From Candidatus Omnitrophota bacterium (GTDB lineage: Bacteria; Omnitrophota; Gorgyraeia; Zapsychrales; Fredricksoniimonadaceae): a DNA stretch of 64,000 nucleotides. Positions 15,147-34,898 of the stretch are shown in pieces. The notes under the pieces were generated by a model. That model was given only the letters and a program-made list of their open reading frames with translations, was not told where the DNA came from and made no database searches. Each line of letters starts with the position of its first letter. The stretch's first letter is position 1. Position numbers and translations under genes: made by a program. The DNA lies in assembly GCA_028865345.1 (NCBI GenBank), contig JAGWKL010000004.1, forward strand, positions 79,422 through 143,421, read 5' to 3'.

Positions 15147-15238
15147 TCCCTCCCACTTTATTTGGTTAATAAAAACTATGGTTATGCTACCAAATAAGGA
15201 TTAACTTACCCTTAGGAGCAGATTAACTTTCTCTAATC

Positions 15239-16666: not shown

Positions 16667-16667
16667 G

Positions 16668-17336: not shown

Positions 17337-18022
17337 TAAAGTAAATTGAAACGATAGCCGATGCCCGGCTCATTGATGATGCGCCGGGGGGTTGAGGGGC
17401 TGTCTTCGATCTTCTGGCGCAGGTGGTTTAAATAGACCCGGACGGAATTGGCCTTCTCTTCGTTTTCCGTCGCCCAGACCTCCCTTAAGATCTGGCGCAC
17501 CGTCAGGATGCGGCCCGCGTTCTTGATGAGCGCGGACAACAGCCCGTATTCGATGGAAGTCAGCTTGAGTGCCTGGCCGCAAAGCCAGACGCGGCGGGTA
17601 TTGAATTCCACCCGCAATCCCGCGTTGTCAAAAACTTGGTCGACAATGCCGGAGGTGGTCTTGCGCCGCAGCACCGCCGCAAGCCTTGCGGTCAGCTCGG
17701 AGGCGGAAAACGGCTTGGTGACATAATCATCCGCCCCGCTTTCCAGGGCTTTGACCTTGATCTCTTCCTGCCCACGCACCGAGACGATGATGACGGCCAC
17801 GTCGCTGAATTCCCTGATGCGCCGCAGCACCTCCAGCCCCTCCATATCCGGCAGGCCCATATCCAATAAAACGGCCTGAGGTTTTTTATAAACAACCGCC
17901 CCCAGGCCCTCTTGGCCGTTTTGAGTATGGACCGCTTCATACCCGGCGTGCGTGAGGATAATGCCCAACATTTTTTGGATTTGAGGCTCATCATCAATGA
18001 CAAGTACTGTGCCTTTGGACAT
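17336..18022 (-). CDS. kdpE: KdpE response regulator (OmpR family)
   Basis: Receiver plus winged-helix domains. Lies immediately downstream of kdpD with a 1-nt gap. C-terminal GIGYRF motif. Confidence 0.85.
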   Translation of the reverse strand: MSKGTVLVIDDEPQIQKMLGIILTHAGYEAVHTQNGQEGLGAVVYKKPQAVLLDMGLPDMEGLEVLRRIREFSDVAVIIVSVRGQEEIKVKALESGADDYVTKPFSASELTARLAAVLRRKTTSGIVDQVFDNAGLRVEFNTRRVWLCGQALKLTSIEYGLLSALIKNAGRILTVRQILREVWATENEEKANSVRVYLNHLRQKIEDSPSTPRRIINEPGIGYRFNLL

Positions 18023-18023
18023 C

Positions 18024-20666
18024 CTATTCTTTTTCCGCCATGGGCAGGGTGATGGTCACCATAAAACCTTTCGGGGACAAATTCTCCGCTTCCACCTCGC
18101 CCTCATTCAATTGCACGAACCGGCGGGCGATGGACAACCCCAGTCCCAGGCCGCCTTTCCTGGTCTTGGCCCCCCGATAAAATTTATCGAAAATCTTGGC
18201 CAGGGTCTGTTTGGAAATGCCTTCCCCCTGGTCAATGACGCTGATCCTGATCTTTTGGTCGATCACACGGACATGGATGTCGATGTCCAGGCCCTCGGGG
18301 CCGTGCACCAGGGCATTATGGACGATATTTTTCAACGCCTGTGTGATCATATAGAAATCCGCATTCACATACACAGGACCCTGCGGACAATCTACATGGA
18401 TGCGCTTTTCATCCTTGGACGTCCCCACCTGCTTAAGGGCGTGGGCCACGATGTCCTTGACTTCGCACCAGGCAAAATTGGGACTTAGGTTGCCGACATC
18501 CAGCTTGGTCAGATCCAGCACCGCATCCACGCCGCTGGTCAGGCGAAGGCAGGCCAGCCGGCATTCATCCAAAAGCTCCATGGCATCCTTGGGCCACTGA
18601 TGAAACAAGATCAGGGCGTCCAGATAACCGGAAATGATCGTCAGCGGCGTCTTGAGCTCATGGGACAAATTATCAAGAAGCGCGCTTTGCAGATTTTGCG
18701 TGTCTTCCTTCATCTTGGCTTCACGGGAGATCTTCAGCAGCTGGTCCTTTTCCAGCATCACCGTCATAAGCGCCGTGAATGATTCCAATAATGTCCTCTG
18801 GGCCAAATCCAAAGGCCTTTCCTTTAAAAGCTTGATGACCACAATGGCCCTCACCTGGCCCGATGACATTAAAGGCAGGTACATCAAGGGCTGCTGGGGC
18901 AGCGTGTCCGAAAAACGGCCCGCGGCCTTTTTATTGGCCACCACCCACTGGACCAAACCTTTTTGGTTGGGTGTCATATCAATAGGGTCCCCCAACGGAT
19001 TGGCGAACAGCGGCTGCTCGCTCTCGTCGACCATAAAGACGCTGCTATGGCACTGCAGCAACAGGTTGATTTGGGCTGTCGCCAGGCGCATGGCCTGGGC
19101 GATATCGGTGCTGAGCGCCAGGGCCCTGGTCAACTCATACAGGGATTCGGAACGTTGGCGCTGCTTCTGCTCTATTTCCTTTTGGCGGCGCAGTTTCGAG
19201 GTGACAAATCCCATCATCAAGGCTGTTATGAAAAACATGCCGAGTACGCCGATGTCATAGGTGGTCCTCAGATGAAGCGCAAACTTAGGAGGAATGAACA
19301 AATAATCCCAGGCAAAGGCGCTTAAAGCGGCCAGCATAAAGGCCGCGCTGCGGCCCAGGAAAGAACCGCTCAAGACAACGGTCAGCAAATATAAAAGCCC
19401 CAGCACCTCGTAGCCCGTCCAGGGGGCCAGCAGCATGTTCACGATGGTCGCAATGACAAACATCAGGAAACTCAAGCCATATTCACGGGGTCTTGGCCTC
19501 ATCAAGAATTCATTGGGTTTGGAAGGAAAGTTCTTTTCCGCGGCCGACATGCGCACCATATGCACGTCTATCTGTCCGCTTAAAGCCACCAGGCGGTCCG
19601 CCACCGTCGGGATCCCCAAAAAACGCTGCCATCTGGTCTCCGACGATTTTCCGAAAATAATTTGGGTCACGTTTTCCTTATTGGCCACATCCACGATCAC
19701 CTGGGCCAGGTCATCCCCGACCCGGTGGATGATCTCCGCCCCCAGCTGCCGGGCCAGGGTCAAATTCTTCATCAGGCGTTCTTTATGCTCTTCGGTAAGC
19801 GGCGCGGAACCTTCCACGTGCAGGGCGATCCAGGAGGCATCGAGCATCCCTGCCCAGCGGCGGGTCATGCGGATCAATGATTCCGAAAAAGGCGTAATAC
19901 CTACAGCCACCAGAATGCGTTCCCCGCTTTTAGAAGGGCCTGAAAGGCCCTTGGCCAGCATCAGCGAGCGCAGGTTGCGGTTGACATGGGCCGTGGTCAG
20001 GCGGAGAGCCATTTCCCTTAAGGCCGTGAGGTTTTCCGTCTTAAAAAAGTTGACCGCGGCCGCCTGAGCCTGGTCAGGGACATACACCTTGCCTTCGGCC
20101 AGGCGCTGGTGCAAGGCCTGAGGTGAAAGGTCGACCAGCGTGATTTCGGAAGCTTCGTCCAGGATGGTGTCGGGAACGGTCTCACCGACGGCAATGCGGG
20201 TGACCGCCAGGATGTCCTCCCGGCGGCTGTCCACATGCTGCACGTTCAGGGTGGTGAACACATCGATGTCCGCGGCCAGGACCTCCAAAACGTCCTGATA
20301 ACGTTTGGGATGACGGCTGCCCGGGGCATTGGTATGGGCAAGCTCATCGACGAGAACCAACTGCGGATGGCGCTTAAGGATCTCATCGATGTCCATCTCT
20401 TCGATGGTAATGCCCCGATAATTGACTTTCTTTAAAGGGATTTGCTCCAGGCCCTGCAGGAGCGCCCGGGTCTCGGGCCGGCCATGGGTCATGACAACGC
20501 CTACCAGCACCCGGAAACCCTCCGCCTGGCGCTGGCGCGCCTCCTGGAGCATGGCGTAGGTCTTGCCGACGCCGGGGCACATGCCGAAAAAAATCTTGAG
20601 TTTGCCGTGGTGGTCTTCTTCGGCTTTAAATCTCGCTAACAGCGCGTCCGGATCAGGGCGTTCCAT
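18024..20666 (-). CDS. kdpD: KdpD osmosensitive K+ channel sensor histidine kinase
   Basis: N-terminal KdpD domain with Walker A (GMCPGVGKTYAM), USP-like domain, 4-TM block, GAF-like region, HisKA (LSHELKTPLT) and HATPase. Confidence 0.9.
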   Translation of the reverse strand: MERPDPDALLARFKAEEDHHGKLKIFFGMCPGVGKTYAMLQEARQRQAEGFRVLVGVVMTHGRPETRALLQGLEQIPLKKVNYRGITIEEMDIDEILKRHPQLVLVDELAHTNAPGSRHPKRYQDVLEVLAADIDVFTTLNVQHVDSRREDILAVTRIAVGETVPDTILDEASEITLVDLSPQALHQRLAEGKVYVPDQAQAAAVNFFKTENLTALREMALRLTTAHVNRNLRSLMLAKGLSGPSKSGERILVAVGITPFSESLIRMTRRWAGMLDASWIALHVEGSAPLTEEHKERLMKNLTLARQLGAEIIHRVGDDLAQVIVDVANKENVTQIIFGKSSETRWQRFLGIPTVADRLVALSGQIDVHMVRMSAAEKNFPSKPNEFLMRPRPREYGLSFLMFVIATIVNMLLAPWTGYEVLGLLYLLTVVLSGSFLGRSAAFMLAALSAFAWDYLFIPPKFALHLRTTYDIGVLGMFFITALMMGFVTSKLRRQKEIEQKQRQRSESLYELTRALALSTDIAQAMRLATAQINLLLQCHSSVFMVDESEQPLFANPLGDPIDMTPNQKGLVQWVVANKKAAGRFSDTLPQQPLMYLPLMSSGQVRAIVVIKLLKERPLDLAQRTLLESFTALMTVMLEKDQLLKISREAKMKEDTQNLQSALLDNLSHELKTPLTIISGYLDALILFHQWPKDAMELLDECRLACLRLTSGVDAVLDLTKLDVGNLSPNFAWCEVKDIVAHALKQVGTSKDEKRIHVDCPQGPVYVNADFYMITQALKNIVHNALVHGPEGLDIDIHVRVIDQKIRISVIDQGEGISKQTLAKIFDKFYRGAKTRKGGLGLGLSIARRFVQLNEGEVEAENLSPKGFMVTITLPMAEKE

Positions 20667-20708
20667 GCCTTCTATGATACTTCATTTGAGGGCTCGTGGA
20701 AAATTATT

Positions 20709-23700
20709 TTAACGGTTTCCAAACATCAAATGGAAGGCATCGTTGACGGTAAGGCTGGGGGTGAAACGGACGATGTGGAAATTAAACCCTTGAAACCCCT
20801 CAGACATCTGCACCGCCTCCCTTCTCCCGGAAAGACCGGCAGTGGAAAAACGATTGATGAATTGAGGCTGAAAATCAAGGTCAATACCCCCGCTGCGTTT
20901 GGCGGCGGAAGCGTTCATGGCGGCATCGACCACCCTTTGGGCCAGATGCCTCGCCCTGTCGGAAGCGGAAGCAAAAACCACCGTATTCCTCTCCGGCAAA
21001 TAAACCATGTTTTTCAAATTGTGGCGGGACAAGGAGACCTCCCCAATTACTGAATAAACGCGCGTTCTTTCATCCACCGATGCGTTTCTAATAGCATTTA
21101 AATTTCTTTCAAAACTCTCTTTATATCCATTACCGTTCCCATTACCATTGCCATGTCCATTATCGGCACCACTGCGTATTTGGGCCTGGATATAATCCAT
21201 GTATTCTTTTAAAAGAATGTTGGGGTCCTCAAAATTTTGGGCCATGACCCTGGGAATAATGATATCCGGAATAAATCTTAACCCGCCGGCATTGACCAAT
21301 TCCTCGGCCAATACTGTTTGCAATTGGACCTCCTCAGGGGACATGGTCATAAGGCGGGTCAAGCCCATCATTTGCTGGGCCGATTCATTGTCCAGGTCCA
21401 AGCCTTTGGCCCTGATGATATTGATCGTGGGTGAAAATCGTTTTCTCGCATGCTCCCTAAGATCGAGGTTTTCATACATTCTGGCAACCGTCGTCAGCCC
21501 TTCGTTTAAATCAGAAATCACCCAAGCCCGAGATGGCCTGGAGAGATCGTGCAAATCCCTTATGTTCGTCCAATGGGTGCCGAAGGTGATCCCTGAACCA
21601 TCGGCATGTTGGACAGGAGGCCCCACATAAGCATCCTGTGCGTAACCCAGGACAAGCCCTCCTTTAGGCGTCGTTTTTGCCGCCGCGTATAAATTGTAAA
21701 TGCCTAATTGGATACGGGGATCATCGGGAGGGATGTTGCCCTCAACGAAAAGAAAGAGTTTATGGTTGTCCTTGCCCGATTTGGTTTCTCTCAAGGCCTT
21801 AAAAAAAGTGTCCCCATCCTGCGTCCCCCACCCGATGATTTGGGAGTTCCTGACGGTTTCCCTGAGAGCCTCGATGTACTTAGGGTCATGGTTTTCCACC
21901 AAAAGCACAACGGGATCATCACCCTCATGGGATTCGGCTTCTTCAACGGCCCGCCTGATAATCTGTTCTTCATTGTTGGCTTGCGAGACATTTTCAACGA
22001 CATTTTTCTTAAATACAGGCCATTGGTGAGGCCCTGCCGTCAATCCGACGGCTTCGGCCATTTTTTCACGGAGCCTGAGCAGCACCTCTTTCATGTTTTT
22101 GTTGTCTATCAACCTCTTATTGGCCAGGGTGGGCCCCAAATAGTTGGCAAAGGTGATCGCCACGCTGGCCAGAAGACCGAATATTTCAAGGACATTGAAA
22201 CGGCCGAATGTCAAAAATGGCAGCCGCCCATAACCGAAATAGCTAAAGGCGATCTTTAATGCCAAAAACCCGTCTACAAATGTAAAAATATGCCGGCTGT
22301 ACCAACTGCGCTTACGCGAATTCTTGCTTGAAGCTGCGTACCCGTAACTGCCGAATCTCTTACTCTCCTTTTTGACTTCCAGCCATCGTTTCTTGCTCTC
22401 GGTGATGGTAGCGTTTATTTCATTTTCCTTATAGAGTCCGGGGACAATAAAATTGCCTGTCTCCATCAGGTCCCTTAGGTCAGCCTCCAATTTATTTTCA
22501 GGCTTCTTGACCAGGGACTCAAAGCCCAAAAGGGCGGTGGGATAATTGAAGGTCTCCTCCAGTTCGCCTTTCTGAAAATGTTCGTTGTTACGGAGATTAA
22601 GATTGACACGGCCCTGGAGCCAATCCAGAAATTTCTGGACGTAGATCATTTTTAAATTCATGCGCTCGCTGGTTTCCCAAGAGGCATGTCGTTGGCCTTC
22701 CGTGGCCCTGTTCATACGGTCAGACACCATTTTGGAAGTCCTGTTGGCCAGTCTCACAAAGTAAGAAAAACCTTTCTGATAGGCCTCGTTCTGGGCGCCT
22801 TTACGGCTTTTGTTATCGACAAGGTCCGGGGTATATTTCATACGGACAATGATGGCATCGGCAATAACGGCCATAAACACCTGGTCGTTCAGGAGTTTTT
22901 CTATCGGATAACGGGGATCGCTGTCCCATAACTGTAAAATTTCTTCCCATTTTTTCAAAAGTGCCGGCACACTGACCTCATTAGCAATAACCCCCTCTCC
23001 CTTGCCGTTATTATTAAGGAACTCATCCTCCAGGATGCGCATGAGTTTATCCAGGCTTGCAAACTTTCTGTTTTTCCAGTCCCAGAATTTCGGAGAAAGA
23101 AGGTAGTAAAGCCCCACGCAGATAACGAGAAGGCTTGCCCCGACACCTGTATTCCAGGCCCATTGCCACCAGTGCCCCTGGACGATCTGCTGGTCATTCT
23201 CATAGATGGATTTTATATAATCGTTACGCAGCTTCAGGACCGCTTCCACAACTTCTTTATCTGTACCGGAGTTTTTCATCTGAGTTAAATACTTCTCCAG
23301 CTCTTGCGGGTCGTTCAGAGACTCGATTTTTTGTGCCAATCGATCCAAAGCATCCGAAAACCGGACAGAATGGACCGGCATCCCTGCGGAATAAGAATCC
23401 TTTTGGGCCATCTGCGTATTGATCTGGATGGCGCGTACGGCCCACTTGGTGGCGATCAACTTGATCTGGGCGTCCCGGCTCGCGGCTCCTGCCGCGGGAG
23501 GGTTCTGCATGGACAGTTCTATAAAGGAATATGTATCCAAATACGCCTCAGAAAACGACAGGTTCTGCGTCCGTCCGCCCATTTTATAGAGCGCCCGTCG
23601 AAAAACCCCCATGGCCGCCGGTGTTTTAAGATTTTGAGCATCTTGTTTGACGGTATCTATATTCTGACGGGCCTCAATGGCCCTAAGCATGAGCTCATCA

Positions 23701-26700
23701 TTGGAATTGATGTAGTCTTGCATCACCAATAAACGGCCTTCAGCATCCCCCATCAATCGGTCCAGGACCAAATTTAAATCATCCGCATTTTTCAAAACAT
23801 ACGGATGGGGAAGGATGCGGGCCAGTTCGGATTTTGTCGCTGTTTTAAGATACTCTCCTTGCCGGGAGACCGTCATGGTTGATAAATACGCCAGCGTGTC
23901 TTGAGGGTCCCGGGGAAGCGCGCCGATAGCGGAAACACCCGCCCTTTCCTGCTCATTGACCTGGTTTTGATCGATCAAATTTTGCGCCTGCCGGCGGGCT
24001 TCTGCCAACAAATCGCCCCTCAAAAGGCCCATATGTTTACGCCAGCCGGGGGAATTCAAAAATAGACGCAATTGGTCCGGTAATACGCTGATACGTCCCA
24101 AAGCCTCCGTATTGGAATCAACGAACAAAGAGTACGTATTGACATTTTGATATTCTCCCGGCTGAAAATGTTCATTTATCCTCTCTAAAACAATCTTTCT
24201 GACCAGGACATCCATGAACAGATCTTTCATGGCCTGGGCCTGCTTAGGGTCGGCAAAGTAAAGATCCATTTCATTATAAAGGCGGGCCAACTCATCCGTA
24301 CGCCAATATCGGCCCATCAATAGGTTGTCTTGCCCCAACCCATCAGGGTCCTTGGCAATAAAGGCCAGTAAGATTTTCTGTGCCAAAGCCCGTTGATTGG
24401 GATAAACACCGTCGGCATCGAAACTGGAGGGATACAAAGCATCCAAAATTCCGGGGTTATCGGTAAAGATGTCCCCGATGGACTGATAAGCCCAATTGAC
24501 GGCTTGGCCATTGCCCTTTTGCTGCGCCGTTTGGATGAAGTTGACTAAAAAGCGCAGGCTGCGCCATGGGTTGCTCCCGTCTAAAAACAGAAAAATCCGC
24601 TCTCTGACGTCTGCGGGCGCCGTCAAGGCGGCTGCCCCCAGTTTTTCAACGTCTTTTGCTGTCCCCTGATAGCCGGACAAAAGGTCATCGATCCCGGGCT
24701 CCCTGTTAAAAGGATTGCTGTCATAAACATTCATCGTTGAATTGGGCCCGGGCAGGGTCGATCTGGCCTTCCAGGCATTAAAATCCCTATTGGGATTTGA
24801 AAGCTGCTGGGCGTGAAGGGGCATGACGCCGATGCTGACGGCCATGCTGAAAGCCAGAATTAATTTCTGTAAAAAACCCGCAAGCTGGGCCCTGTCAGCG
24901 GCCATGGCCTGGTTTGCGCTGTCTTGGATCAGGGATTGGTCCGGGCCCAGGACGCCCAATTTTTGCAAATCATCCTGGGCCTGGAGATATTGACCTTTAA
25001 GTTGTATTATCTTCACGGCCCACTTATTCATGGCTCCGCGCTCCGTGGCCCAATCCTGAGGCGCGTAAAGAGTGCCTGTAAAGCCGGCTTTCAACTCCCA
25101 CCATTTTAGGGCATTTTGATAAGCTTCCCGGGCTTGTTGGATTTGACTGCTTAAATCTCTAAGAGCGCCGATCTTGACGGCCACTTCCCCTCTTAAATTA
25201 TTTTCCATCAACTCCAATTCTGCCGTCTTCTTTTGCAATTCGAGGGCAAGGATCTTTTGATCTATTTTCTTCTTTCCATCATATAAGGGGATGCTCAACC
25301 CTTCTGCGCCGTTCTCTCCGGGATTCATTTCAGAAGCCCGCCATGTTTCGCCGCCGCCGAAGGCGGGTTCCGTAAAAGAACTGCTGATGGCGCTGCCGCT
25401 GTAAACCCCTGTGGCATTGGCCTGCCAGCCTTCGATCTTTTTCAATTTTAACTGCTGGCGGATCTTGGCTATTTCCGTCTGGGCCCGTTGGATTTGAGGA
25501 TTAGCCGTTAAAAGTTTTTCGATAAAAGCATTTTCCTGCTCTTGGCTTGGGGCGGGAAATTCCGCCTGCCATGGGATGTCCATGGCAAAGCCTGCATGAA
25601 GGTCTTGCCGGCCGGTTAAGGTGTTGAGTTGTATGGTCAGTTCGTCATTGCCCTGAACAGCTTCTGATCTTGCTTCCTTAGCTTCCGCAATATTATTGTC
25701 AAAGGCCATGAGCTGCTCTTGTGTACCCACGCCGGCTTGCATGCTCTGGACAATGGCTTTTCTCCCCATTTCCAAATCTTTGATATATTGATCGTAAAGC
25801 GCCGCGATTTGCTGTTGAGTCCCCAGATCAATACCGATGTCCTTGGCATGTTCAGTCTGTTCAAGCACAGCAGCTTGATACTCGCGCAGCACGATTTCCG
25901 TCTGTATTTTGGCATATTCTATCTGTTTGGCCTTTTGGTGGGTGACCAATTCCGCGATCTTTAGAAAATAGGGAAAGACCAGCTTGGCTGCCGCGCCGTA
26001 AGCATTGCCGGAAGCCAGATCAATGGCAACATCCGGTATATTGGCATCGACCCCGCCGCCGATATATGTTTTGCCGCCGGATGAATAAACATTAAAATCC
26101 AGACCGATGTATTTGCTGTTGGGATATTTCTCGGCCAATTGGTTTTGGAGGTATGAAATCCTTTGGGTAACAGCCGTCAGTTTAAAGTCCCTGACCTTTT
26201 GCCCTATGGCAGTAAGGTTCACCGAGGGCCCCTGTACCGGAAATGACGTCAGGGGCGGATTAATGTTGATAACGGCCCGAGGGTTTAAAACCGGCCGGGA
26301 AAGCTTATCCGCATGAATTTTGGGCGGAGGCGGCGGAGCTGCCCCTGAAAAGACCGGCGTAGAATTCTCCTGCGTCCATACCTTTGCCGCTATCTGCTGA
26401 TTTGTTTTATCCAGCAAGCTGACATTGACTCCCATGCCTATGCGTAAAACATGCCGGGGGTCAAGGACCTTGATTTCAACCGACTTTTTGTTCAATTGGA
26501 TGTCCGGACTGAAAGCATCAACAACATTGGTCACCCGTCCTACAAGCCGATAACCCCCTATTTGAGTTGTGACCAGCACATAATCGCCCCGATGAACAGG
26601 CCCATCCAAAAGGACCGCGTTCGAGGGATCATTAAAATCCCCCAGAAAAACGGTGCCGGGGCTGTACTCCAAGAGTTTCTCGCCGCTTTTAAACGTTCCT

Positions 26701-29700
26701 GATTGATGTTCCCATGATGAGACAATAACGCCGTCCCTCGGAGCTTTTATGACTAAATTATTCAGAATCGTCCTGAGCCTTGCAACTTCAGATTTCCATT
26801 TAATGTCTTCGGCCTGAAGCTTATCGATCTGTACCGGAGCGATCGTCCCGCCGGAAGCAGGCGCTTCGTTTCTAAGCCGGTCTTCAACCGCATGAACTTG
26901 ATCGACTGCTTCCTGATATTGAGCAAGATATGGTTTAGGGTCCACCCGGGCCACGATTTGGCCGGCCTCGACCTTGTCCCCTTCACGGACCAAAAAATTT
27001 ACCGGCCCGTCGGCCGTGGCATCGATCGGATAGGTTTCAATGTTTCTGACCAGCTCACGCGTGCTTCCGGAGGCAACAATGGTATGAAGCAGCCTGGAGG
27101 ACCCTCCATCCGCAGAATAGACTTTAAGAGACAACTGCACTGTCTGGCCCTGTCTTATCGGCGATGAAGGGGTGACAACCAAGGTCAAATGTGCCGTCCG
27201 CGGATCCACCGTGGGCAGCCAATTAATGCCTGTGATGCTCTTGACCGGTTTACCGTCGATGGTCAGGTCAAGATCATTGTTATTGGCGCTGATGGGAAGG
27301 TCCACTTCAAAGCGGACCCTGTCTTCGTCAAAATAACTGGCCAACGCGGCCCCCTGCTCGACAGGAGTTCCGCTGTCGACTTGAAAATCCCTGATCACAA
27401 GTTTATGGGGAGCTTTTACCTTCCCCAACTCACGCTCGGCTAAAGCCTTGGTCAATTCCTGCTGCAGGCTTTGGACATTTTCCCGGGCCTTCTGCAGTTC
27501 ATTGACCGGAGCGGCCTGGGACTGCTCCAGAGAAGCCTCCATTTCTTCGGCAGCATGCAATTGCGCCCGAAGGGTTGTAATACGGCTTTCCAACTGCAGA
27601 TTCCTTATGATGAGTATTGTTTCTCCTTCTTTATATGTCGTCTTGGAAGCATCCAGGATCTCCGCAAAACCGCTCAGTTTGGCCGTTAAATTGTCCTCAA
27701 CAGAAGAGGCCTGCACTTTTTTCTGCAACACATAAAACTTTTTACCATAATGCCAAGGGATTTGATGGGTTTTTACGCGGGATGGGACGACATGACTCAT
27801 TGGTGCTGCTGCGGGAACGGGCTTGGACGCCGGCGGGGACGCCGGAATTTCTTCATGCGCCTGCTGCGTTTGATAGGGTTTCTCAATCTCAACCTGCGCG
27901 GGTTTCAATGGCACGTTGACCGGTTCGATCCGTTCCTGTGTTTGAATATTGGCTTGTGTAGCTGCAGGGGCAACGGGCGTTGGATGTAAATTTAAATTCG
28001 TATTCTTCTCAGCCGGCAGCGGAGACACCTCTGCCACAGGCGTTGATCCGGTATCGGTTCGAATTTGACCGTTCATATCATCAAGAAGGCGGTGAATATC
28101 TTTTAAATTCCGTTCCAAATCATAGAGACTTTGAGTATGGGCAGCTTGAATCTGAACATCATGGTTGTCAAGGGCGCCCCTGGCTGGTCTGACGGTCCAG
28201 GTCTTGACAAAATCCTGCGCTGCTTGTTCGAGATCACCCAGGACACGGACAACATCATCCCTCTGTCCCTCCGGAAGGCTTCTGACAAAACCCGGGTCTT
28301 TCAACAGGCCGTCCAGGGCGTCGGCCTCTGCCCTGAATCGCGGGACAACGGGATGGGCCAGCGCTCCAAAAATATGGGAGCCTTCCGTATCATCGTCGAA
28401 TGTTGATTGCAGATCCTGGATCGTCCGGCTGAGTCTCTGAAAATTATTGCCGATGTTTTTATGGTCTACGTTGGATAAATCCTGCATGTAGCTCCTGACC
28501 TTGGGGCCGGCGTTCTCAGGGCCTGGGATATTAAAACTTGTGCTGGGCTGGATAACATTGATATTATGCGATGGGATTTGGCTTTCAACAGACGGCTGTA
28601 GCTGTGCCACAATTCCACGGGCTCCCCAAAGCTGCCCCCTATAACCGCTGTCCAGCAGGATTTGCCCTAAGGTATCATGCTGTTGGACTGCCACATGCAG
28701 GGTGCCATTAGAATTGTGGGTAATTACCGCGGCTTGGGCAACCCCACCTGCCCCCAACAATGCCAGGGCGACCGTAAGGACAAAACTCCTTATCGATGAA
28801 CGGCTGACCGTCATGCTGGGATCCATGCCGATGGGCGAAAGCGCCACATGGGCCATGGCATAGTCGGAACTCTGGGCCAAATCAGGCGCGATCACTTCGG
28901 GATTCATGACCCGTACGGTCATGGCCCAATTTTTGAAACCGGAAAAATTACAGCCGCCGGAAAAATATTTTCGGGGAACAATTTTCTGGGAAACAGGGTC
29001 CTCGTCTTCGCGGATATAGTTGTACGCGCCTTTCTTGAACAAACGCAGGTATTCCCTATAGATCTTTTCCTTGGCCTGCAAAGGCACGTCATCGACACCG
29101 GCGGTTTTTCTTTTATTGATATAAATGTCCGACAAAACATTTCTCCTTAAAGCGCGTTTATACCAGTCCGCCAGGATCAGTGAATAGAACATCTGGCGCA
29201 GCGGCGCGAAATTCTTGCCTGTATTGACCTCTTTTTCCAATTCCGGCAGTATGAGCCTTTTGGTGATCATGGAGGTAAAGCTATGGGTCGGGCGGGCGTT
29301 GATGCCGGCATGAGACCGGTTTTTTTTCAGGGCCAAATAATCCTCTTCCATCATGACCTTAAGGTGCGTTTGACCGACCACGGCACTGTTGCCCATGTCG
29401 TAGACAATGGCCTTGTCTGGAACTATCCAGACCTTATTGAAGGTGTTTATGGGAAGATCCGTGGTGCCGTATATTTCAGCGGCTTTTTTGTAAACTTCAG
29501 CCCAGAATTTTCTGCCAAGACCGGTCTCGGGATAGGTGAGCGAGGACGTCAATTGTTTAAGAAGCTTGTCCTGTTCCAGAAGGATGTTGCCAGCGTCCGT
29601 AACGGACAAATCCGCAGGGACAATCCGTCCTTTTTCGTAAGGCGATAAATTGACCCAAAGGTCTCCTTCCGGGATCGTCAGAAAGGTCAAAAAATACTTG

Positions 29701-29975
29701 ATAAGAAGCGAAGTCTCTTTGCGGCTGATCGTGCCCTTATCCTGGGCATCCACCATAAAATCGAATTCAAAAGGATTTTCAGGATACACGCGCATGCCGC
29801 GTAAAACAGGAGAGGAATAAGGAGAAGAAAGGGTAAGAATGCGGGTGTAGGGATCAGGTAAAAACGGTGTGGGCTGGGCCTGGACATAGCCGGCCGAGCT
29901 GTTGAAGACCAATAGAAAAATTAAAAGGCCGGTCAGCGACTGAAAAGGCCAGGATTTTTTCTTAAACATTGCCAC
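20709..29975 (-). CDS. giant 3088-aa mosaic envelope protein. Order N to C: signal peptide; unknown domain; internal signal-peptide-like TM; LysM-like motif; Pro/Ala-rich linker; two MFP(HlyD/AcrA)-like modules; PPPPP linker; TolC/OMF-like two-repeat module; second internal signal-like segment; about 1300-aa C-terminal region with 3 TM helices and a (GN)4 repeat
   Basis: Uninterrupted 9267-nt ORF. N-terminal signal peptide. Internal M..VLTVALALLGAGGVAQAA and ILAFSMAVSIGVMPLHAQQ segments that look like fossil signal peptides. HDTLGQIL...NINVIQPSTSFNIP resembles LysM. PVNFLVREGDKVEAGQIVARVD and LVIKAPRDGVIVS...YRLVGRVTNV match MFP lipoyl/beta-barrel motifs. LLTANPQIQRAQTEIAKIRQQLKL...LSIPLYDGKKK and LDFNVYSSGG...TGRQD match OMF repeats. 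TM helices lie near residues 2290 and 2490-2540. Confidence 0.7.
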   Translation of the reverse strand: MAMFKKKSWPFQSLTGLLIFLLVFNSSAGYVQAQPTPFLPDPYTRILTLSSPYSSPVLRGMRVYPENPFEFDFMVDAQDKGTISRKETSLLIKYFLTFLTIPEGDLWVNLSPYEKGRIVPADLSVTDAGNILLEQDKLLKQLTSSLTYPETGLGRKFWAEVYKKAAEIYGTTDLPINTFNKVWIVPDKAIVYDMGNSAVVGQTHLKVMMEEDYLALKKNRSHAGINARPTHSFTSMITKRLILPELEKEVNTGKNFAPLRQMFYSLILADWYKRALRRNVLSDIYINKRKTAGVDDVPLQAKEKIYREYLRLFKKGAYNYIREDEDPVSQKIVPRKYFSGGCNFSGFKNWAMTVRVMNPEVIAPDLAQSSDYAMAHVALSPIGMDPSMTVSRSSIRSFVLTVALALLGAGGVAQAAVITHNSNGTLHVAVQQHDTLGQILLDSGYRGQLWGARGIVAQLQPSVESQIPSHNINVIQPSTSFNIPGPENAGPKVRSYMQDLSNVDHKNIGNNFQRLSRTIQDLQSTFDDDTEGSHIFGALAHPVVPRFRAEADALDGLLKDPGFVRSLPEGQRDDVVRVLGDLEQAAQDFVKTWTVRPARGALDNHDVQIQAAHTQSLYDLERNLKDIHRLLDDMNGQIRTDTGSTPVAEVSPLPAEKNTNLNLHPTPVAPAATQANIQTQERIEPVNVPLKPAQVEIEKPYQTQQAHEEIPASPPASKPVPAAAPMSHVVPSRVKTHQIPWHYGKKFYVLQKKVQASSVEDNLTAKLSGFAEILDASKTTYKEGETILIIRNLQLESRITTLRAQLHAAEEMEASLEQSQAAPVNELQKARENVQSLQQELTKALAERELGKVKAPHKLVIRDFQVDSGTPVEQGAALASYFDEDRVRFEVDLPISANNNDLDLTIDGKPVKSITGINWLPTVDPRTAHLTLVVTPSSPIRQGQTVQLSLKVYSADGGSSRLLHTIVASGSTRELVRNIETYPIDATADGPVNFLVREGDKVEAGQIVARVDPKPYLAQYQEAVDQVHAVEDRLRNEAPASGGTIAPVQIDKLQAEDIKWKSEVARLRTILNNLVIKAPRDGVIVSSWEHQSGTFKSGEKLLEYSPGTVFLGDFNDPSNAVLLDGPVHRGDYVLVTTQIGGYRLVGRVTNVVDAFSPDIQLNKKSVEIKVLDPRHVLRIGMGVNVSLLDKTNQQIAAKVWTQENSTPVFSGAAPPPPPKIHADKLSRPVLNPRAVININPPLTSFPVQGPSVNLTAIGQKVRDFKLTAVTQRISYLQNQLAEKYPNSKYIGLDFNVYSSGGKTYIGGGVDANIPDVAIDLASGNAYGAAAKLVFPYFLKIAELVTHQKAKQIEYAKIQTEIVLREYQAAVLEQTEHAKDIGIDLGTQQQIAALYDQYIKDLEMGRKAIVQSMQAGVGTQEQLMAFDNNIAEAKEARSEAVQGNDELTIQLNTLTGRQDLHAGFAMDIPWQAEFPAPSQEQENAFIEKLLTANPQIQRAQTEIAKIRQQLKLKKIEGWQANATGVYSGSAISSSFTEPAFGGGETWRASEMNPGENGAEGLSIPLYDGKKKIDQKILALELQKKTAELELMENNLRGEVAVKIGALRDLSSQIQQAREAYQNALKWWELKAGFTGTLYAPQDWATERGAMNKWAVKIIQLKGQYLQAQDDLQKLGVLGPDQSLIQDSANQAMAADRAQLAGFLQKLILAFSMAVSIGVMPLHAQQLSNPNRDFNAWKARSTLPGPNSTMNVYDSNPFNREPGIDDLLSGYQGTAKDVEKLGAAALTAPADVRERIFLFLDGSNPWRSLRFLVNFIQTAQQKGNGQAVNWAYQSIGDIFTDNPGILDALYPSSFDADGVYPNQRALAQKILLAFIAKDPDGLGQDNLLMGRYWRTDELARLYNEMDLYFADPKQAQAMKDLFMDVLVRKIVLERINEHFQPGEYQNVNTYSLFVDSNTEALGRISVLPDQLRLFLNSPGWRKHMGLLRGDLLAEARRQAQNLIDQNQVNEQERAGVSAIGALPRDPQDTLAYLSTMTVSRQGEYLKTATKSELARILPHPYVLKNADDLNLVLDRLMGDAEGRLLVMQDYINSNDELMLRAIEARQNIDTVKQDAQNLKTPAAMGVFRRALYKMGGRTQNLSFSEAYLDTYSFIELSMQNPPAAGAASRDAQIKLIATKWAVRAIQINTQMAQKDSYSAGMPVHSVRFSDALDRLAQKIESLNDPQELEKYLTQMKNSGTDKEVVEAVLKLRNDYIKSIYENDQQIVQGHWWQWAWNTGVGASLLVICVGLYYLLSPKFWDWKNRKFASLDKLMRILEDEFLNNNGKGEGVIANEVSVPALLKKWEEILQLWDSDPRYPIEKLLNDQVFMAVIADAIIVRMKYTPDLVDNKSRKGAQNEAYQKGFSYFVRLANRTSKMVSDRMNRATEGQRHASWETSERMNLKMIYVQKFLDWLQGRVNLNLRNNEHFQKGELEETFNYPTALLGFESLVKKPENKLEADLRDLMETGNFIVPGLYKENEINATITESKKRWLEVKKESKRFGSYGYAASSKNSRKRSWYSRHIFTFVDGFLALKIAFSYFGYGRLPFLTFGRFNVLEIFGLLASVAITFANYLGPTLANKRLIDNKNMKEVLLRLREKMAEAVGLTAGPHQWPVFKKNVVENVSQANNEEQIIRRAVEEAESHEGDDPVVLLVENHDPKYIEALRETVRNSQIIGWGTQDGDTFFKALRETKSGKDNHKLFLFVEGNIPPDDPRIQLGIYNLYAAAKTTPKGGLVLGYAQDAYVGPPVQHADGSGITFGTHWTNIRDLHDLSRPSRAWVISDLNEGLTTVARMYENLDLREHARKRFSPTINIIRAKGLDLDNESAQQMMGLTRLMTMSPEEVQLQTVLAEELVNAGGLRFIPDIIIPRVMAQNFEDPNILLKEYMDYIQAQIRSGADNGHGNGNGNGNGYKESFERNLNAIRNASVDERTRVYSVIGEVSLSRHNLKNMVYLPERNTVVFASASDRARHLAQRVVDAAMNASAAKRSGGIDLDFQPQFINRFSTAGLSGRREAVQMSEGFQGFNFHIVRFTPSLTVNDAFHLMFGNR
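21121..21170. repeat. hexanucleotide (GGNAAT)n-type microsatellite encoding GNGNGNGNG inside the giant ORF
   Basis: ccattaccgttcccattaccattgccatgtccatt on the + strand, giving GHGNGNGNGNGY in the protein. Confidence 0.5.
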
Positions 29976-30092
29976 ACTCGGAGATTTATCGGTTTCGCTC
30001 CAAGTATAGCCGCTCTATATTATGTATATGTTAAGACAAAGTTAATTTTAAATACTTCCAAAACCATATCAATTGCAATGGGTTAGATGATA

Positions 30093-30680
30093 TCAAGGTC
30101 TCTTCATTGACATATGATCGAGAGCGATGTTGACCTGCAGAACGTTGACGACCGGCTCTCCGAGAAGGTCTAAGAACCGGCCTTGAGTGTAGCGATTGAC
30201 TATTTGCCGGACTTGGGTTTTGGACATTCCCCGTACACGGGCGACACGCGCCAGTTGATACCGGGCCGCAGCCAGACTGATGTCAGGGTCTAACCCGCTG
30301 CCGGAAGAGGTCACTAAATCCACCGGAATAGGGGCCTTGTTGCCCGGATCAGCGGCTTTTAAAGCTGCGATCCGGCCCTTCACCTCGTCCAGTAAAGCAG
30401 GATTGGTAGGGCCAAAATTTGATCCTGTGGAAGAAGATGCATTGTAAGCCGGGATAGTGGCCGATATCCGGCCCCAGAAATATTTCGGGTCGCTGAAATC
30501 CTGCCCTATCAAGGTGGAGCCTAATATTTTACCATTGCTCGAATAGATCAAACTGCCTTCGGCCTGTTTGTGGAACAATGTCTGGGCAATGCCGGTGACG
30601 ACCAGCGGATATATGATGCCGGTCAATACCGAAAACAAGATGAACGAAACGATGGTTGGTCTAAGCTGAGAAAAAAACAT
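30093..30680 (-). CDS. kdpC: potassium-transporting ATPase subunit C
   Basis: N-terminal TM and conserved KdpC motifs (SGSGLDPDIS, QVNIALD). Confidence 0.9.
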   Translation of the reverse strand: MFFSQLRPTIVSFILFSVLTGIIYPLVVTGIAQTLFHKQAEGSLIYSSNGKILGSTLIGQDFSDPKYFWGRISATIPAYNASSSTGSNFGPTNPALLDEVKGRIAALKAADPGNKAPIPVDLVTSSGSGLDPDISLAAARYQLARVARVRGMSKTQVRQIVNRYTQGRFLDLLGEPVVNVLQVNIALDHMSMKRP

Positions 30681-30697
30681 TTTTTATTGCCTCCTCG

Positions 30698-32779
30698 TTA
30701 TACCCAATGCCATGCGGCCAAAATCATGTCGATCAATTTAATCCCCACAAACGGGGCGATGAGGCCTCCTGCACCATAAATCAACAGATTGTCCCGCAAT
30801 AAACGGCTGGCAGCCACGGCCCGGTACGGTACGCCGAACAACGATAAAGGAATGAGCACAATGATGATGAGCGCATTAAAGATAACCGCAGAAAGGATAG
30901 CACTTTGCGGGGTCGTTAAATGCATGATATTCAATGCTCCAAGTTGAGGGTACGTTCCCACGAATGCCGCCGGGATGATCGCAAAATATTTGGAAACGTC
31001 ATTGGCGATGCTAAAAGTGGTCAGAGACCCGCGTGTAATAAGAAGCTGTTTGCCGATCTTTACCACTTCGATCAATTTAGTGGGATTGGAATCCAAGTCC
31101 ACCATGTTGCCCGCTTCCTTGGCAGCCTGGGTGCCGGTATTCATAGCAACCGCCACATCCGCCTGGGCCAAAGCAGGCGCGTCATTGGTCCCATCGCCGG
31201 TCATGGCGACCAGCCGGCCGCCGGTTTGCATGTCACGGATCAACTTCAATTTAGTTTCAGGGGTCGCCTGGGCAAGGAAATCATCCATGCCCGCCTCCGC
31301 CGCAATGGCCGCGGCTGTCAACGGATTGTCACCCGTGATCATGACGGTCTTGATGCCCATACGCCGCAATTCGGCGAATCGTTCACTGATCCCGCCTTTG
31401 ACAATATCTTTTAACTCGATGACCCCCAGCACATGTTGATTCTCTACCACCGCCAGCGGTGTGCCTCCCTTTTGGGAAATGGCCTCTACCGTTGATTTTA
31501 GATCATCGGGGAATACCCCGCCGGCTTTTTTCACATGGCTTTCAATGGCATCGACCGAACCTTTCCGTATTTGGCGATTAGACCCCAAATCCACCCCGCT
31601 CATCCTAGTCTGGGCGCTGAAGGGAATGAAATGCGCACCTATTTCCTGGGTCTGCCTTTCCCTGATACCGTACCGTTTGGCCAACACCACGATGCTGCGG
31701 CCTTCCGGGGTTTCGTCAGACAATGAAGACAATTGGGCCGCATCTGCCAGGGCCTCAACTTTTACTCCTTTTGCCGGAACAAAGGCCACGGCCTGCCTGT
31801 TGCCCAAGGTGATTGTCCCTGTCTTATCGAGCAGCAAGACATCCACATCGCCGGCGGCTTCCACCGCTCGACCGGATGTGGCGATGACATTAGCCTGAAT
31901 CATGCGGTCCATGCCGGCTATACCGATGGCCGGCAACAAACCGCCGATCGTGGTGGGGATCAGACAGACCAAAAGCGCGACCAAGGCCGTGACCGTGATC
32001 ACGGTCCCCTTGCCGGCCGCGGCCACGCTAAAAATGGAAAACGGCAAAAGGGTCACTGTCACCAAAAGAAAAATGATCGTAAAAACCACCAGCAGGATGC
32101 TCAATGCGATTTCATTAGGAGTTTTCTGGCGGCGGGCCCCCTCCACCATGGCGATCATGTGGTCCAAAAATGTTTCGCCGGGATTGGCGGTGATTTTAAT
32201 GACCAACCAATCTGAAAGCACGCGTGTGCCTCCGGTGACCGCAGAGCGGTCGCCGCCGCTTTCGCGGATAACAGGCGCGCTTTCCCCGGTGATGGCGCTT
32301 TCATCGACGGACGCAACGCCTTCGATGACCTCGCCGTCCATGGGGATATAATCCCCTTGCTCGACAAGCACAACATCGTCCTTATGCAAAGCCGTGACTG
32401 AAACGCTGGTGAAGCCCGCCCCATGGACAGGCTTGGAGAGCTTTTTGGCAGGCGTGTCCTTACGGGCACGGCGCAAGCTTTCGGCCTGGGCCTTGCCCCG
32501 GCCTTCGGCCATGCTCTCCGCGAAATTGGCAAACACGATCGTAAACCACAGCCATAAAGTGACCGCAAGGATAAAGCCGGCCCCGGCTTCGCCATGTCCT
32601 ATCAAGGCCTGGATCCATAAACCTGTCGTCAACACGCTGCCGACGAAAACCACAAACATGACAGGATTCTTGATCTGGTGCCGCGGGTCCAGTTTCTTAA
32701 ATGCCTCAATGACCGCCGGCCACAAAATCGTAAGTTCAAACAATGATGTGACCTTGCTGTGTGTCTTTTTCATAATCAT
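30698..32779 (-). CDS. kdpB: potassium-transporting P-type ATPase subunit B
   Basis: DKTGTIT phosphorylation motif, TGDN and [10 protein letters not shown] motifs. Confidence 0.95.
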
Positions 32780-32782
32780 CCC

Positions 32783-34528
32783 TTAATTTGAAGGCAGCAT
32801 TAAATGTTCGACGATCGGGCCCAAAGCCAGGGCCGGGAAAAAGGCCAATGCCCCCACGATCAAGACAACCGTAGCCAGAAAAAACACAAAAAGCGGCGTA
32901 TGCGTCGGCAAGGTCCCCTGTGTCGTCGGCACAATTTTCTTGGCCGACAAAGATCCTGCAATGGCCAATATAGGAATGATCAGCCAATAGCGACAGAAGA
33001 ACATTGCTACACCCAAGGAGATATTATAAAAAGGCGTATTGGCATTGATGCCGGCAAAAGCACTGCCATTGTTGCCGCAGCATGAAGAAAACGCATAAAG
33101 GATCTCACTGAAGCCATGAGGGCCCGGATTTGAAATCCCAGCCTTTCCGGCAGCGGTAAGCACGGCGATGGCCGTTGGTATCAAAATGAACAAATGCGGA
33201 ATAAACGCGACGAGGGAAGCCATCTTCATTTCAAAGGCCTCGATCTTCTTGCCTAAATATTCCGGCGTGCGGCCGATCATCAGGCCTGCTATAAATACGG
33301 CCACGATGACAAAACCGATCATACCGTACAAACCCGAGCCGACGCCGCCGAAAATGACTTCCCCCAACTGAATCAGCCACATGGGGATCATGCCGCCCAA
33401 CGGCATATACGAATCATGCATGGAGTTGACCGAACCGTTGGAGGCACTCGTCGTGGCCACGGCCCAAATAGTAGAGCTCACGATTCCGAAACGGGCCTCC
33501 TTGCCCTCCATATTGCCACCGGACTGAAAATCTGTTGCATTTTGATCAACGCCCAATTTACCAATTAAAGGGTTTCCTCGTTGTTCAATATGGGTCACAA
33601 ACAAAAGGCACGGGATGAATATAACCAACATCGCCGCCAACAACGCCCAACCTTGACGGTGGTCACGAACCATATAGCCAAAGGTGTAACATAAGGCCGC
33701 CGGGATCAAAAGAATAGCCAACATCTCAAGGAAATTCGACAAGGGGGTTGGATTTTCATACGGATGCGCGGAATTAGTATTGTAATATCCGCCTCCGTTC
33801 GTCCCTAATTGTTTAATGGCAACCTGGGAGGCTACAGGACCAAGGGCCAAATCTTGTTGGGTGACCAGCTTGCCATTGGAGTCTTTGGCATCTTGAAGCA
33901 AGGCGGCTTTGGCGCTGGGAGCAAAGGTCTGCGGAACTCCTTGGGAAACAAGGAGCAGAGCCAGAACCAAGGCCGAAGGAAGCAGAATATATAAAATCGT
34001 TCTGACCATATCCACCCAAAAATTGCCGATGGTGTTCATTTGCTTTTGCACGAATCCCCTGATCAGGGCGACCAAAACGACCATGCCTGTTGCAGCCGAA
34101 GAGAAATTCTGTTTGGCCAGGGCAAGCATTTGAGTCAAATAGCTCATGGTGCTTTCGCCGCTGTAGCCTTGCCAGTTGGTATTGGTAGCGAAACTGATAG
34201 CGGTATTAAAGGAAGAGTCCGGTGACACAGCAGTCATGCCCGTAGGATTCAAGGGTAGAAAGGCTTGAAGGCGTTGAATGGCATAAACAATCAATATGCC
34301 TAATATATTAAACATCATCACGGCACAGGCATAGGTTTTCCAGGACATCCCCTCTTCAGGTTTTACCCCGCAAAGCCGGTAAAGCCATTTTTCCAATGGC
34401 ATGAGCCACACGTTTAAACCTGCGGGCCTTCCTTCATATATACGGGCCATGTAGGCGCCCAAGGGCTTGACACACAAAAGCAATACGATCACATAAATTC
34501 CAATTTGAATAAGATCGTTATAGCTCAT
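32783..34528 (-). CDS. kdpA: potassium-transporting ATPase subunit A
   Basis: 581 aa, 10-TM, KdpA-type selectivity-filter-like regions. Its start overlaps the kdpF stop (TAATG). Confidence 0.95.
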   Translation of the reverse strand: MSYNDLIQIGIYVIVLLLCVKPLGAYMARIYEGRPAGLNVWLMPLEKWLYRLCGVKPEEGMSWKTYACAVMMFNILGILIVYAIQRLQAFLPLNPTGMTAVSPDSSFNTAISFATNTNWQGYSGESTMSYLTQMLALAKQNFSSAATGMVVLVALIRGFVQKQMNTIGNFWVDMVRTILYILLPSALVLALLLVSQGVPQTFAPSAKAALLQDAKDSNGKLVTQQDLALGPVASQVAIKQLGTNGGGYYNTNSAHPYENPTPLSNFLEMLAILLIPAALCYTFGYMVRDHRQGWALLAAMLVIFIPCLLFVTHIEQRGNPLIGKLGVDQNATDFQSGGNMEGKEARFGIVSSTIWAVATTSASNGSVNSMHDSYMPLGGMIPMWLIQLGEVIFGGVGSGLYGMIGFVIVAVFIAGLMIGRTPEYLGKKIEAFEMKMASLVAFIPHLFILIPTAIAVLTAAGKAGISNPGPHGFSEILYAFSSCCGNNGSAFAGINANTPFYNISLGVAMFFCRYWLIIPILAIAGSLSAKKIVPTTQGTLPTHTPLFVFFLATVVLIVGALAFFPALALGPIVEHLMLPSN

Positions 34529-34617
34529 TAAAATATCTCCGGCCTAAAAAAGGCGATAAACAAATAAATAAACAATCCCAACGATACAATACCGCCGACC
34601 CAGTAGATGGTCAACAT
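34528..34617 (-). CDS. kdpF: KdpF-like 29-aa single-TM peptide (MLTIYWVGGIVSLGLFIYLFIAFFRPEIF)
   Basis: Not in the ORF track because of its short length; found by hand translation. GGGGG Shine-Dalgarno 4 nt upstream. Its stop overlaps the kdpA ATG. C-terminal ...YLFIAFFRPEIF resembles the E. coli KdpF ending ...YLVYALINAEAF. Confidence 0.55.
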   Translation of the reverse strand: MLTIYWVGGIVSLGLFIYLFIAFFRPEIF

Positions 34618-34626
34618 AGAACCCCC

Positions 34627-34710
34627 TTACACTTTTGAGCACAAAACAATAAAGCCGAAGGAAATGAGCCCGAAGAAAACCACAAGGCCAATAAAAGTAA
34701 TATCCGTCAT
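34627..34710 (-). CDS. second tiny hydrophobic peptide (27 aa, MTDITFIGLVVFFGLISFGFIVLCSKV) immediately upstream of kdpF
   Basis: Hand-translated. GAGGAG RBS about 10 nt upstream. Its stop is followed by the kdpF RBS. Single predicted TM. Confidence 0.3.
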   Translation of the reverse strand: MTDITFIGLVVFFGLISFGFIVLCSKV

Positions 34711-34898
34711 ATAAACATGTCTCCTCTATCCTATTCTGAAAATAAGTTTAGCATCGCCACTGATATTAGCTAATTAAAAAGATGCCAAAGCATATTAAAA
34801 AAGTATTAAAACCCGCTGAGGCCGGCAAAAACAGGTATTAATAAAGGAAAATCCCTGAAGAACTTGCATTTAAGGCCGGCACGGGTTAATTTAATGCT

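Follow-up and report, generated by a model that had tools for sequence, protein, structure and literature searches.

A kdp operon split by the probable insertion of a giant envelope-protein gene in a Candidatus Omnitrophota bacterium

Introduction

The kdp operon of a Candidatus Omnitrophota bacterium (GenBank assembly GCA_028865345.1, contig JAGWKL010000004.1) raises the question of why a gene of more than 9 kb stands between the structural genes of a K+-uptake ATPase and the genes of its sensor and regulator, and whether that gene belongs to the system at all. Within the 64,000-nucleotide stretch analyzed here (positions 79,422 to 143,421 of the contig; hereafter the window, to which coordinates refer unless another locus is named), kdpF-kdpA-kdpB-kdpC (34617..30093), a giant open reading frame (ORF), kdpD, and kdpE follow one another in this order, all on the minus strand, with gaps of 117 nt between kdpC and the giant ORF (30092..29976) and 42 nt between the giant ORF and kdpD (20708..20667). 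An earlier note on this DNA, whose ORF coordinates, strand, and gap sizes were reproduced exactly by our ORF map, had offered two readings: that the giant gene is co-transcribed with the kdp genes and thereby placed under K+-limitation or osmotic control, or that it is an insertion separating the regulatory from the structural genes.

Here we argue, with a probability of roughly 85%, that the arrangement is a recent, derived, lineage-specific insertion of a self-contained unit of ~9.4 kb into the 3' end of kdpC, and that the giant gene is not a new component of Kdp. The evidence comes from gene order in related genomes, from the junctions of the insert, and from the positions of giant-gene orthologues elsewhere.

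Gene order in related genomes

Loci for comparison were collected by a KdpD scan of one genome per GTDB species, which gave 24 Omnitrophota loci with 68-88% KdpD identity, on which the proteins of the window were placed by tblastn. In 19/19 related loci with upstream DNA, outgroups included, kdpC is followed by kdpD (1-138 nt apart) and kdpD by kdpE, with no gene between kdpC and kdpD; the P-type ATPase and Na+/H+ exchanger genes upstream of kdp are also syntenic in related loci. In the KdpD tree the window falls inside the crown clade, with L008 as its sister, and the outgroups L016, L018, and L021 lack the insert; the split is therefore derived. Far from being a conserved kdp component in relatives, an arrangement that the earlier note had named as evidence against its proposal, the giant gene shows no association with kdp in the 19 related loci, and the eight orthologues examined lie elsewhere. 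Synteny, junction sequences, and orthologue positions thus lend strong support to the insertion alternative.

Junctions of the probable insert

The window tracks its relatives up to GATCATAT (30119..30112) in kdpC and then diverges, and the match resumes from TAAAATAAT (20711..) onward. The kdpC genes of relatives terminate in ...GATCAATATAAAAAATAA, whereas the last ~6 kdpC codons of the window (from ~30111) are inserted DNA, so that KdpC ends in HMSMKRP* in place of the QYKK* of the relatives. Most relatives have a kdpC-kdpD spacer of ~35 nt ending in AAATGAAGTATyATAGArGGC-ATG(kdpD), and five have a longer spacer of another type. At the other end, the TAA of the giant gene (20711..20709) leads straight into AATAAT, the spacer, and its conserved end motif, the ancestral TAAAA(AA)TAAT resuming at that point. 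The right end of the insert is thus the stop codon of the giant gene, and orthologues finish at the same residue within two positions.

The giant ORF is the sole ORF of the insert, in which no transposase or integrase was found. No terminal direct or inverted repeats of at least 8 nt occur at the insert ends (chance 7-mers only), and no target-site duplication was found at the junctions. The composition of the giant gene is native, with a relative synonymous codon usage correlation of 0.91 with the other genes of the window and a GC fraction of 0.50; neither composition nor codon usage gives a foreign signal.

These junctions can be accommodated by a simple sequence of events. An ancestor with the canonical kdpFABCDE order would have received, within the last two or three codons of kdpC and in the same orientation, a unit made up of the ~3,086-codon gene and the ~140 nt that had preceded it; KdpC would thereby have acquired a new six-residue tail, while both the ~35-nt spacer and a -10-like hexamer before kdpD were left untouched.

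The opposite polarity, with kdpC-giant-kdpD as the ancestral order and loss of the giant gene from kdp in all relatives, is very improbable. Nothing specific favors it beyond the fact that streamlined genomes often delete large genes, and it requires either many independent precise deletions or one deletion together with a misplaced window lineage, even though the KdpD tree puts the window inside the crown clade and the gene is missing from three outgroup lineages. Moreover, QYKK* and the spacer are conserved in relatives, the KdpC tail of the window is unique and reads into non-homologous DNA, and orthologues of the giant gene occupy other sites.

Agreement among assemblies

The same gene order is found in L038 (GCA_028870875.1; 99.87% nucleotide identity to the window over 29 kb) and in L039 (GCA_028866185.1; 99.65% over 21 kb). 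The giant protein of the window is identical to P0122/MDE2009243.1, from a Candidatus Omnitrophota metagenome-assembled genome (MAG) in which NCBI annotates it as a 'TolC family protein', and the cluster to which it belongs at 90% comprises four proteins, one from each of four assemblies. Three separate assemblies, with contigs of 150-212 kb, agree on kdpFABC-giant-kdpDE, and the order is therefore not an assembly artefact. The competing view, that a chimeric metagenomic contig joined unrelated sequences, could appeal to the MAG origin of the contigs and to a short mosaic tract in kdpC, 26% different, that shows strain mixing or recombination nearby; we regard it as scarcely credible, as the kdp sequence picks up again, 9.4 kb further on, precisely at the ancestral spacer and both gaps are free of differences between the window and L039.

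The mosaic tract is 142 nt long (30324..30465) and holds 37 of the 74 differences between the window and L039, the remainder being ~99.8% identical. Its 26% divergence falls mainly on third codon positions and entails seven amino-acid changes. Either recombination brought in a short piece of a diverged allele, or one of the two assemblies mixes strains.

Orthologues of the giant gene occupy other sites

Among the best 120 homologues of the giant protein, about 35 are full-length relatives with 23-43% identity. In four genome types the orthologue lies between ParA/Mrp-like and CbiA/DRTGG genes, next to sucCD and nuo; in the closest relative (L001-L004) it lies ~4 kb from this ParA-like/CbiA site, before a TPR gene; in L036 and L037 it stands between PilT-like ATPase genes and a porin-pst cluster; in L042 (5001..14045) it is co-oriented between thrS and infC-rpmI-rplT-pheST; and in L041 (5001..14153) it is directly upstream of, and co-oriented with, rpsB-tsf-pyrH-frr. 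In L005, L034, L035, and L040 the orthologue is likewise co-oriented with the ParA-like and CbiA genes that flank it, and these gene strings, like those of L041 and L042, are highly conserved apart from it. No orthologue was near kdp in the contexts examined (at least five gene strings). The ParA-like and CbiA genes abut in L001, from which L005, L034, and L035 differ by the clean presence of a single gene, and the orthologue changes chromosomal position between genomes with ~90% identical SucC.

Sequence divergence in the family is rapid. Giant orthologues are 32-41% identical where SucC, SucD, and CbiA are 88-96% identical, with one pair at 71%. The best non-self relative of the window protein has 43% identity, which is normal for the family and is therefore not evidence of foreign origin, in agreement with codon usage. 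Horizontal transfer, which this low best match had suggested, was provisionally set aside after the rate was calibrated on flanking genes. The family as a whole consists of fast-evolving Omnitrophota envelope proteins of ~3,000 residues that are differently sited across lineages.

Such mobility invites the explanation that a conventional mobile element (insertion sequence, transposon, integrative element, or phage) carried the giant gene into kdpC. The insertion is clean, the orthologue shifts position between otherwise closely similar genomes, and in L001-L004, which have the closest orthologue, a gene for a Y1 (IS200/IS605-type) transposase is found 1.2 kb upstream of that orthologue. Against these points, the insert contains one ORF, carries no transposase or integrase, lacks terminal repeats of at least 8 nt, and left no duplicated target sequence; its codon usage is native, and no tRNA or att-like feature accompanies it. 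We consider this explanation quite unlikely.

Promoter elements and transcription

The earlier note had proposed searches for a KdpE box upstream of 34710 and for an internal promoter in 29976..30092, and both returned candidates. The first is a direct repeat at 34791..34811, the core of which can also be written TTTTAATA-N3-TTTTAATA and is conserved in 13/13 aligned relatives. It is the single match in the 64-kb window, where 0.01 are expected by chance, and lies upstream of kdpF; the same scan found no KdpE-box-like site before the giant gene. We infer its assignment to KdpE by analogy with the direct-repeat binding mode of the OmpR family. Because the repeat is unique to the upstream region of kdpF, the KdpE-dependent promoter appears untouched by the insertion. 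Conserved blocks closer to kdpF, with a -10-like hexamer, are putative promoter elements (Table 1).

The second search gave a sigma-70-like consensus match at 30045..30072, which is the best of the 18-kb region and overlaps or adjoins a conserved upstream element. This element of ~60 nt upstream of the giant ORF (AAAATTAA..CTTAAC..TTAACA..TATACT..TTGGAAC) is shared with the orthologues of L001, L005, L034, L035, and L040, which lie at other sites; its conservation at other loci implies that the giant gene moved with its own 5' region.

Before kdpD, a TAnnAT hexamer is found exactly 7 nt upstream of the ATG in 15/20 genomes, in a comparison spanning the window and L007-L029, although the 7 nt in between vary and the kdpC-kdpD spacers are of two unrelated types; the window keeps it as TATCAT (20679..20674). 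This hexamer probably belongs to a promoter from which kdpD is transcribed with little or no leader. TATACT is also seen 7-8 nt before the ATG of the gene that follows the giant gene in L005, L034, and L035, and the two patterns together suggest that many promoters in these genomes adjoin start codons and yield leaderless transcripts. If real, a leaderless kdpD promoter explains why an insertion just upstream is tolerated.

Neither gap contains a terminator-like hairpin, and RNA folding of the two gaps gave no significant structure (z = -1.5 and -1.7). Rfam searches of 15000..36500 at gathering thresholds returned nothing, neither a cyclic di-AMP riboswitch nor any other known RNA. Under the insertion reading, the conserved promoter with the KdpE box, 5' of kdpF, would continue to drive kdpFABC, transcription of the giant gene would start mainly at the element that moved with it, and kdpDE would depend on a basal promoter directly in front of the kdpD ATG. 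With no terminator in either gap, K+ limitation may well induce some read-through into the giant gene and kdpDE; it would be a by-product and not a designed circuit.

Such read-through has precedents. In Escherichia coli and Clostridium acetobutylicum, kdpDE expression also rises via polycistronic kdpABCDE read-through (PMC5716572), and it may matter that read-through also supplies the N-terminal serine kinase of KdpD, by which the serine of the KdpB TGES motif is phosphorylated (PMC11018627). The motifs of this link between the KdpD serine kinase and TGES are retained in KdpB and KdpD of the window. One could therefore suppose functional co-option, in which a single mRNA of ~17 kb joins the giant gene to kdpFABC and kdpDE and its induction by K+ limitation is adaptive, for example to supply an envelope channel for low K+ or osmotic stress. 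The shared strand, the short gaps (117 and 42 nt) with no terminator-like hairpin or significant RNA structure, the stability of the arrangement in three MAGs with all genes intact, and both published arguments for read-through are consistent with this proposal. However, the giant gene is absent from 19/19 related kdp loci and its orthologues lie in unrelated contexts; it brings a conserved upstream element with it and is preceded by the best-matching sigma-70-like site in the region, with no KdpE-box-like site before it; kdpD retains its own conserved -10-like element; and no domain of the giant protein has a K+-related function. On balance, co-option is unlikely.

Several points also weigh against the insertion reading as formulated here. 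The sigma-70-type scan overall was not above shuffled expectation (20 sites vs 16.8), and the proposed promoter use, the read-through, and the leaderless start of kdpD are deduced from sequence motifs. No transposase, target-site duplication, or terminal repeats show an insertion mechanism or a donor site, and the gene could either have relocated within the genome or have been acquired from a related lineage. Identity to the best non-self relative is just 43%, although such divergence is normal for the family, and no domain was recognised in the C-terminal half of the giant protein.

The kdp genes

Pfam and NCBIfam searches bore out the kdp identities given in the earlier note, with two amendments: kdpE (17336..18022) lies outside the 18024..34710 range in which the note had described the operon, and the true kdpF is 34528..34617 (TIGR02115), the ORF at the upstream end of that range (34627..34710) being a second small ORF. 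All four KdpFABC subunits are present and intact by family matches and P-type motifs. KdpD retains the Walker A and B motifs in its N-terminal domain. The best NCBIfam matches reach 625 bits for KdpD and 200 for KdpE, and the equivalog cut-offs of the E. coli type are higher (1123 and 325); the full KdpD domain set and the adjacent OmpR-type response regulator place the pair in KdpDE. The kdp system of the window is thus an ordinary member of the Kdp family.

The ORF upstream of kdpF encodes a hydrophobic peptide of 27 amino acids, ending in ...FIVLCSKV and preceded by a GAGGAG ribosome-binding site. It is found at the same position in 14 relatives with 40-78% identity (tblastn) and matched no NCBIfam family. 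It may be an extra small Kdp subunit or a leader peptide in this clade.

Table 1. Features of the kdp locus and the giant gene, with window coordinates.
Feature	Coordinates	Strand	Description and basis
Candidate KdpE box	34791..34811	-	direct repeat TTTTAATAC-TT-TTTTAATAT, 11-bp periodicity
Putative promoter-proximal blocks	34738..34780	-	TTTTTAATTAGCTAAnATCAG ... GATGCTAAACTTATTT with -10-like TAAACT; conserved across relatives
27-aa hydrophobic peptide ORF	34627..34710	-	upstream of kdpF; MTDITFIGLVVFFGLISFGFIVLCSKV; tblastn in relatives
kdpF	34528..34617	-	29 aa; TIGR02115 4.1e-09, 36.1 bits vs cut-off 26.85; PF09604 on record for the L038 gene
kdpA	32783..34528	-	PF03814 5.7e-244
kdpB	30698..32779	-	P-type ATPase; E1-E2 ATPase and HAD; TGES at residue 164, DKTGT at 318
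kdpC	30093..30680	-	PF02669 2.5e-74, residues 7-188; NF001454 above cut-off
Inserted segment, ~9.4 kb	20712..30111	-	~140 nt upstream DNA and giant ORF; alignment to relatives
Sigma-70-like site	30045..30072	-	TTGATA-16-TAAAAT, 10/12 matches; consensus match only
Upstream element travelling with giant gene	29993..30049	-	AAAATTAA..CTTAAC..TATACT..TTGGAGCGAAA; orthologue alignment
Giant gene	20709..29969/29975	-	3,086 codons from ATG 29969 (NCBI start); 3,088 from GTG 29975
N-terminal module	28926..29885	-	~aa 31-350, ~320 residues, after signal peptide
Two tandem MexA/HlyD-like membrane-fusion-protein units	26409..27737	-	weak profile matches and structural model
TolC-like outer-membrane-factor domain	24834..26216	-	PF02321 24.1 bits vs cut-off 22, one repeat
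C-terminal ~1,370 residues	20712..24833	-	no recognised domain in Pfam, NCBIfam, and PDB searches
Ancestral kdpC-kdpD spacer	20667..20708	-	retained 3' of insert; alignment with relatives
kdpD	18024..20666	-	880 aa; PF02702, Usp, DUF4118, GAF, HisKA, HATPase_c (Pfam/NCBIfam)
kdpE	17336..18022	-	Pfam/NCBIfam; directly after kdpD; syntenic with kdpD in relatives

Architecture of the giant protein

The giant protein begins with a signal peptide (VQA|Q), followed by an N-terminal module (N-module) that is common to all of the best 120 homologues. Among representatives of 50%-identity clusters, 7,831 have the module, 6,145 with E <= 1e-30, and it is always N-terminal. No Pfam or NCBIfam model covers it. 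Its AlphaFold2 model is confident (mean predicted local distance difference test, pLDDT, 78; predicted template modelling score 0.76), and a Foldseek search of the model against the PDB gave no fold match (best E 0.05, template modelling score, TM, <= 0.13). Elsewhere the module follows a signal peptide in large proteins with varied enzymes, among them triose-phosphate isomerase, phosphomannomutase, NAD+ synthase, and kinases. In the giant protein the module is followed by a further hydrophobic segment that resembles a signal (aa 395-418), and then by a Pro-rich linker.

The middle part resembles components of tripartite pumps. Profile scores for the adaptor region straddle their cut-offs (HlyD_3 23.2 vs 22.2; HlyD_D23 22.4 vs 30; TIGR01730 42.4 vs 94.9), and a PDB profile search matches it to MacA at 2.5e-10. 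PF02321 is matched in 14/15 orthologues (best 1.2e-12) and is marginal in the window protein itself. The AlphaFold2 monomer model of aa 740-1720 (pLDDT 77) contains two lipoyl/alpha-hairpin/beta-barrel units and a TolC-like domain. In Foldseek comparisons the adaptor units match MexA (E ~1e-10, TM 0.65) and the TolC-like domain matches TolC, CmeC, ST50, and OprM (E 1e-13 to 1e-10 over ~460 aligned columns, with target-normalised TM of 0.6-0.66). As modelled, the TolC-like domain has the TolC fold and the adaptor units have the membrane fusion protein fold.

Outside this region, aa 1-740 and ~1720-3088 gave nothing recognised in searches of Pfam (E <= 1 on seven segments), NCBIfam, and PDB sequences and profiles. 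Hydrophobic segments lie near aa 1700-1723, 2276-2294, and 2593-2613, and the protein ends in a GGIDL..GFxGFxFxIVxF motif. A corresponding motif, GGIDL[ND]...GF.GF.P/F.I..I.P (last ~60 aa, 20712..20900), also ends unrelated N-module proteins (P0039-P0120); this would fit a signal for sorting or anchoring that goes with the N-module. Pfam, NCBIfam, and PDB profile searches found no K+-related domain in the giant protein. No inner-membrane transporter domain (RND, ABC, MFS) was found in it, in its orthologues, or adjoining it in the window.

At a distance of 6 kb downstream of the giant gene, the window has a separate RND operon that is not conserved beside orthologues. It includes an ORF of 1,503 aa (4802..9313, minus strand) that combines a full AcrB-type RND transporter (PF00873, 1e-291) with a C-terminal TolC/OEP domain of two repeats; a second AcrB, a HlyD adaptor, and a separate OEP gene lie in the same operon (9310..14665). 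The genome thus has a further fusion of efflux-pump components besides the giant protein.

Paralogues of the N-module, 45-52% identical in the module only, occur within a few kb of kdp in several relatives (L011 2431..3369 and 15431..16618; L013 12621..; L016 12398..; L018 8057..; L035 18634.. and 21174..). One in L016 begins 351 nt after kdpE, and one in L011 lies between the P-type ATPase gene and kdpF. Genes of the N-module superfamily are thus dense and variably placed around kdp in this clade.

Comparison with known systems

Compared with canonical kdpFABCDE of the E. coli type, the window has the same genes in the same order and orientation, with a T-rich direct repeat upstream of kdpF, and differs in the 9.4 kb of unrelated coding DNA between kdpC and kdpD, the altered KdpC tail, and the extra 27-aa ORF. 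As in the kdp loci of Deinococcus radiodurans, Anabaena, and Alicyclobacillus acidocaldarius, the structural and regulatory genes do not form one contiguous unit. Those non-canonical loci have truncated or split kdpD, or regulators in a separate operon (PMC5716572, PMC11018627), whereas here kdpD and kdpE are intact and co-oriented downstream, with an unrelated inserted gene setting them apart from kdpFABC. Other phyla already offer examples in which the kdp regulatory genes are split or rearranged, there through division of kdpD itself, and the split operon is itself no new kind of system.

With respect to tripartite efflux and type I secretion, aa ~740-1720 of the giant protein resembles MexA/AcrA/HlyD adaptors and TolC/OprM factors; unlike in those pumps, two adaptors, a TolC-like domain, the N-module, and a C-terminal half of ~1,350 residues are fused in one polypeptide of ~3,086 residues. 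The inserted gene is thus an uncharacterised fusion variant of tripartite-pump components. It shares its phylum and a signal-peptide-plus-transmembrane architecture with the published Omnitrophota giant proteins (West-Roberts et al. 2023 preprint; 2026 preprint), although at 3,086 aa it is below their threshold of at least 10,000 aa (10.64898/2026.06.07.730766). A term search of these two preprints found no mention of TolC, HlyD, or kdp, and literature searches on Omnitrophota giant genes, TolC, the pre-kdpF peptide, and the kdpDE promoter turned up neither the giant family nor the arrangement.

Implications

The larger lead is the giant gene family itself, which combines positional instability, very fast divergence, and a widespread N-module without a PDB fold match. 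A bolder proposal, which we think rather improbable, is that the giant gene is a self-contained relocating unit, comprising the upstream element and the ORF and ending within 0-20 nt of the stop codon, that is repeatedly placed co-oriented at gene junctions of otherwise conserved strings (kdpC|kdpD, ParA-like|CbiA, thrS|infC, and upstream of rpsB), with no recognisable transposase, repeats, or duplication. If true, this would indicate a so far undescribed mechanism by which Omnitrophota relocate very large genes, and a side effect in the window would be an envelope-spanning protein under K+-limitation read-through control.

For Kdp, the locus is a natural experiment. Expression of kdpDE is normally boosted by read-through from kdpFABC, and the N-terminal kinase of KdpD is thought to need expression coupled to the pump; 9.4 kb now lie between them, and the genes are intact in three MAGs. 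That they are intact despite the insert suggests either that the element before kdpD suffices for kdpDE expression or that very long read-through works.

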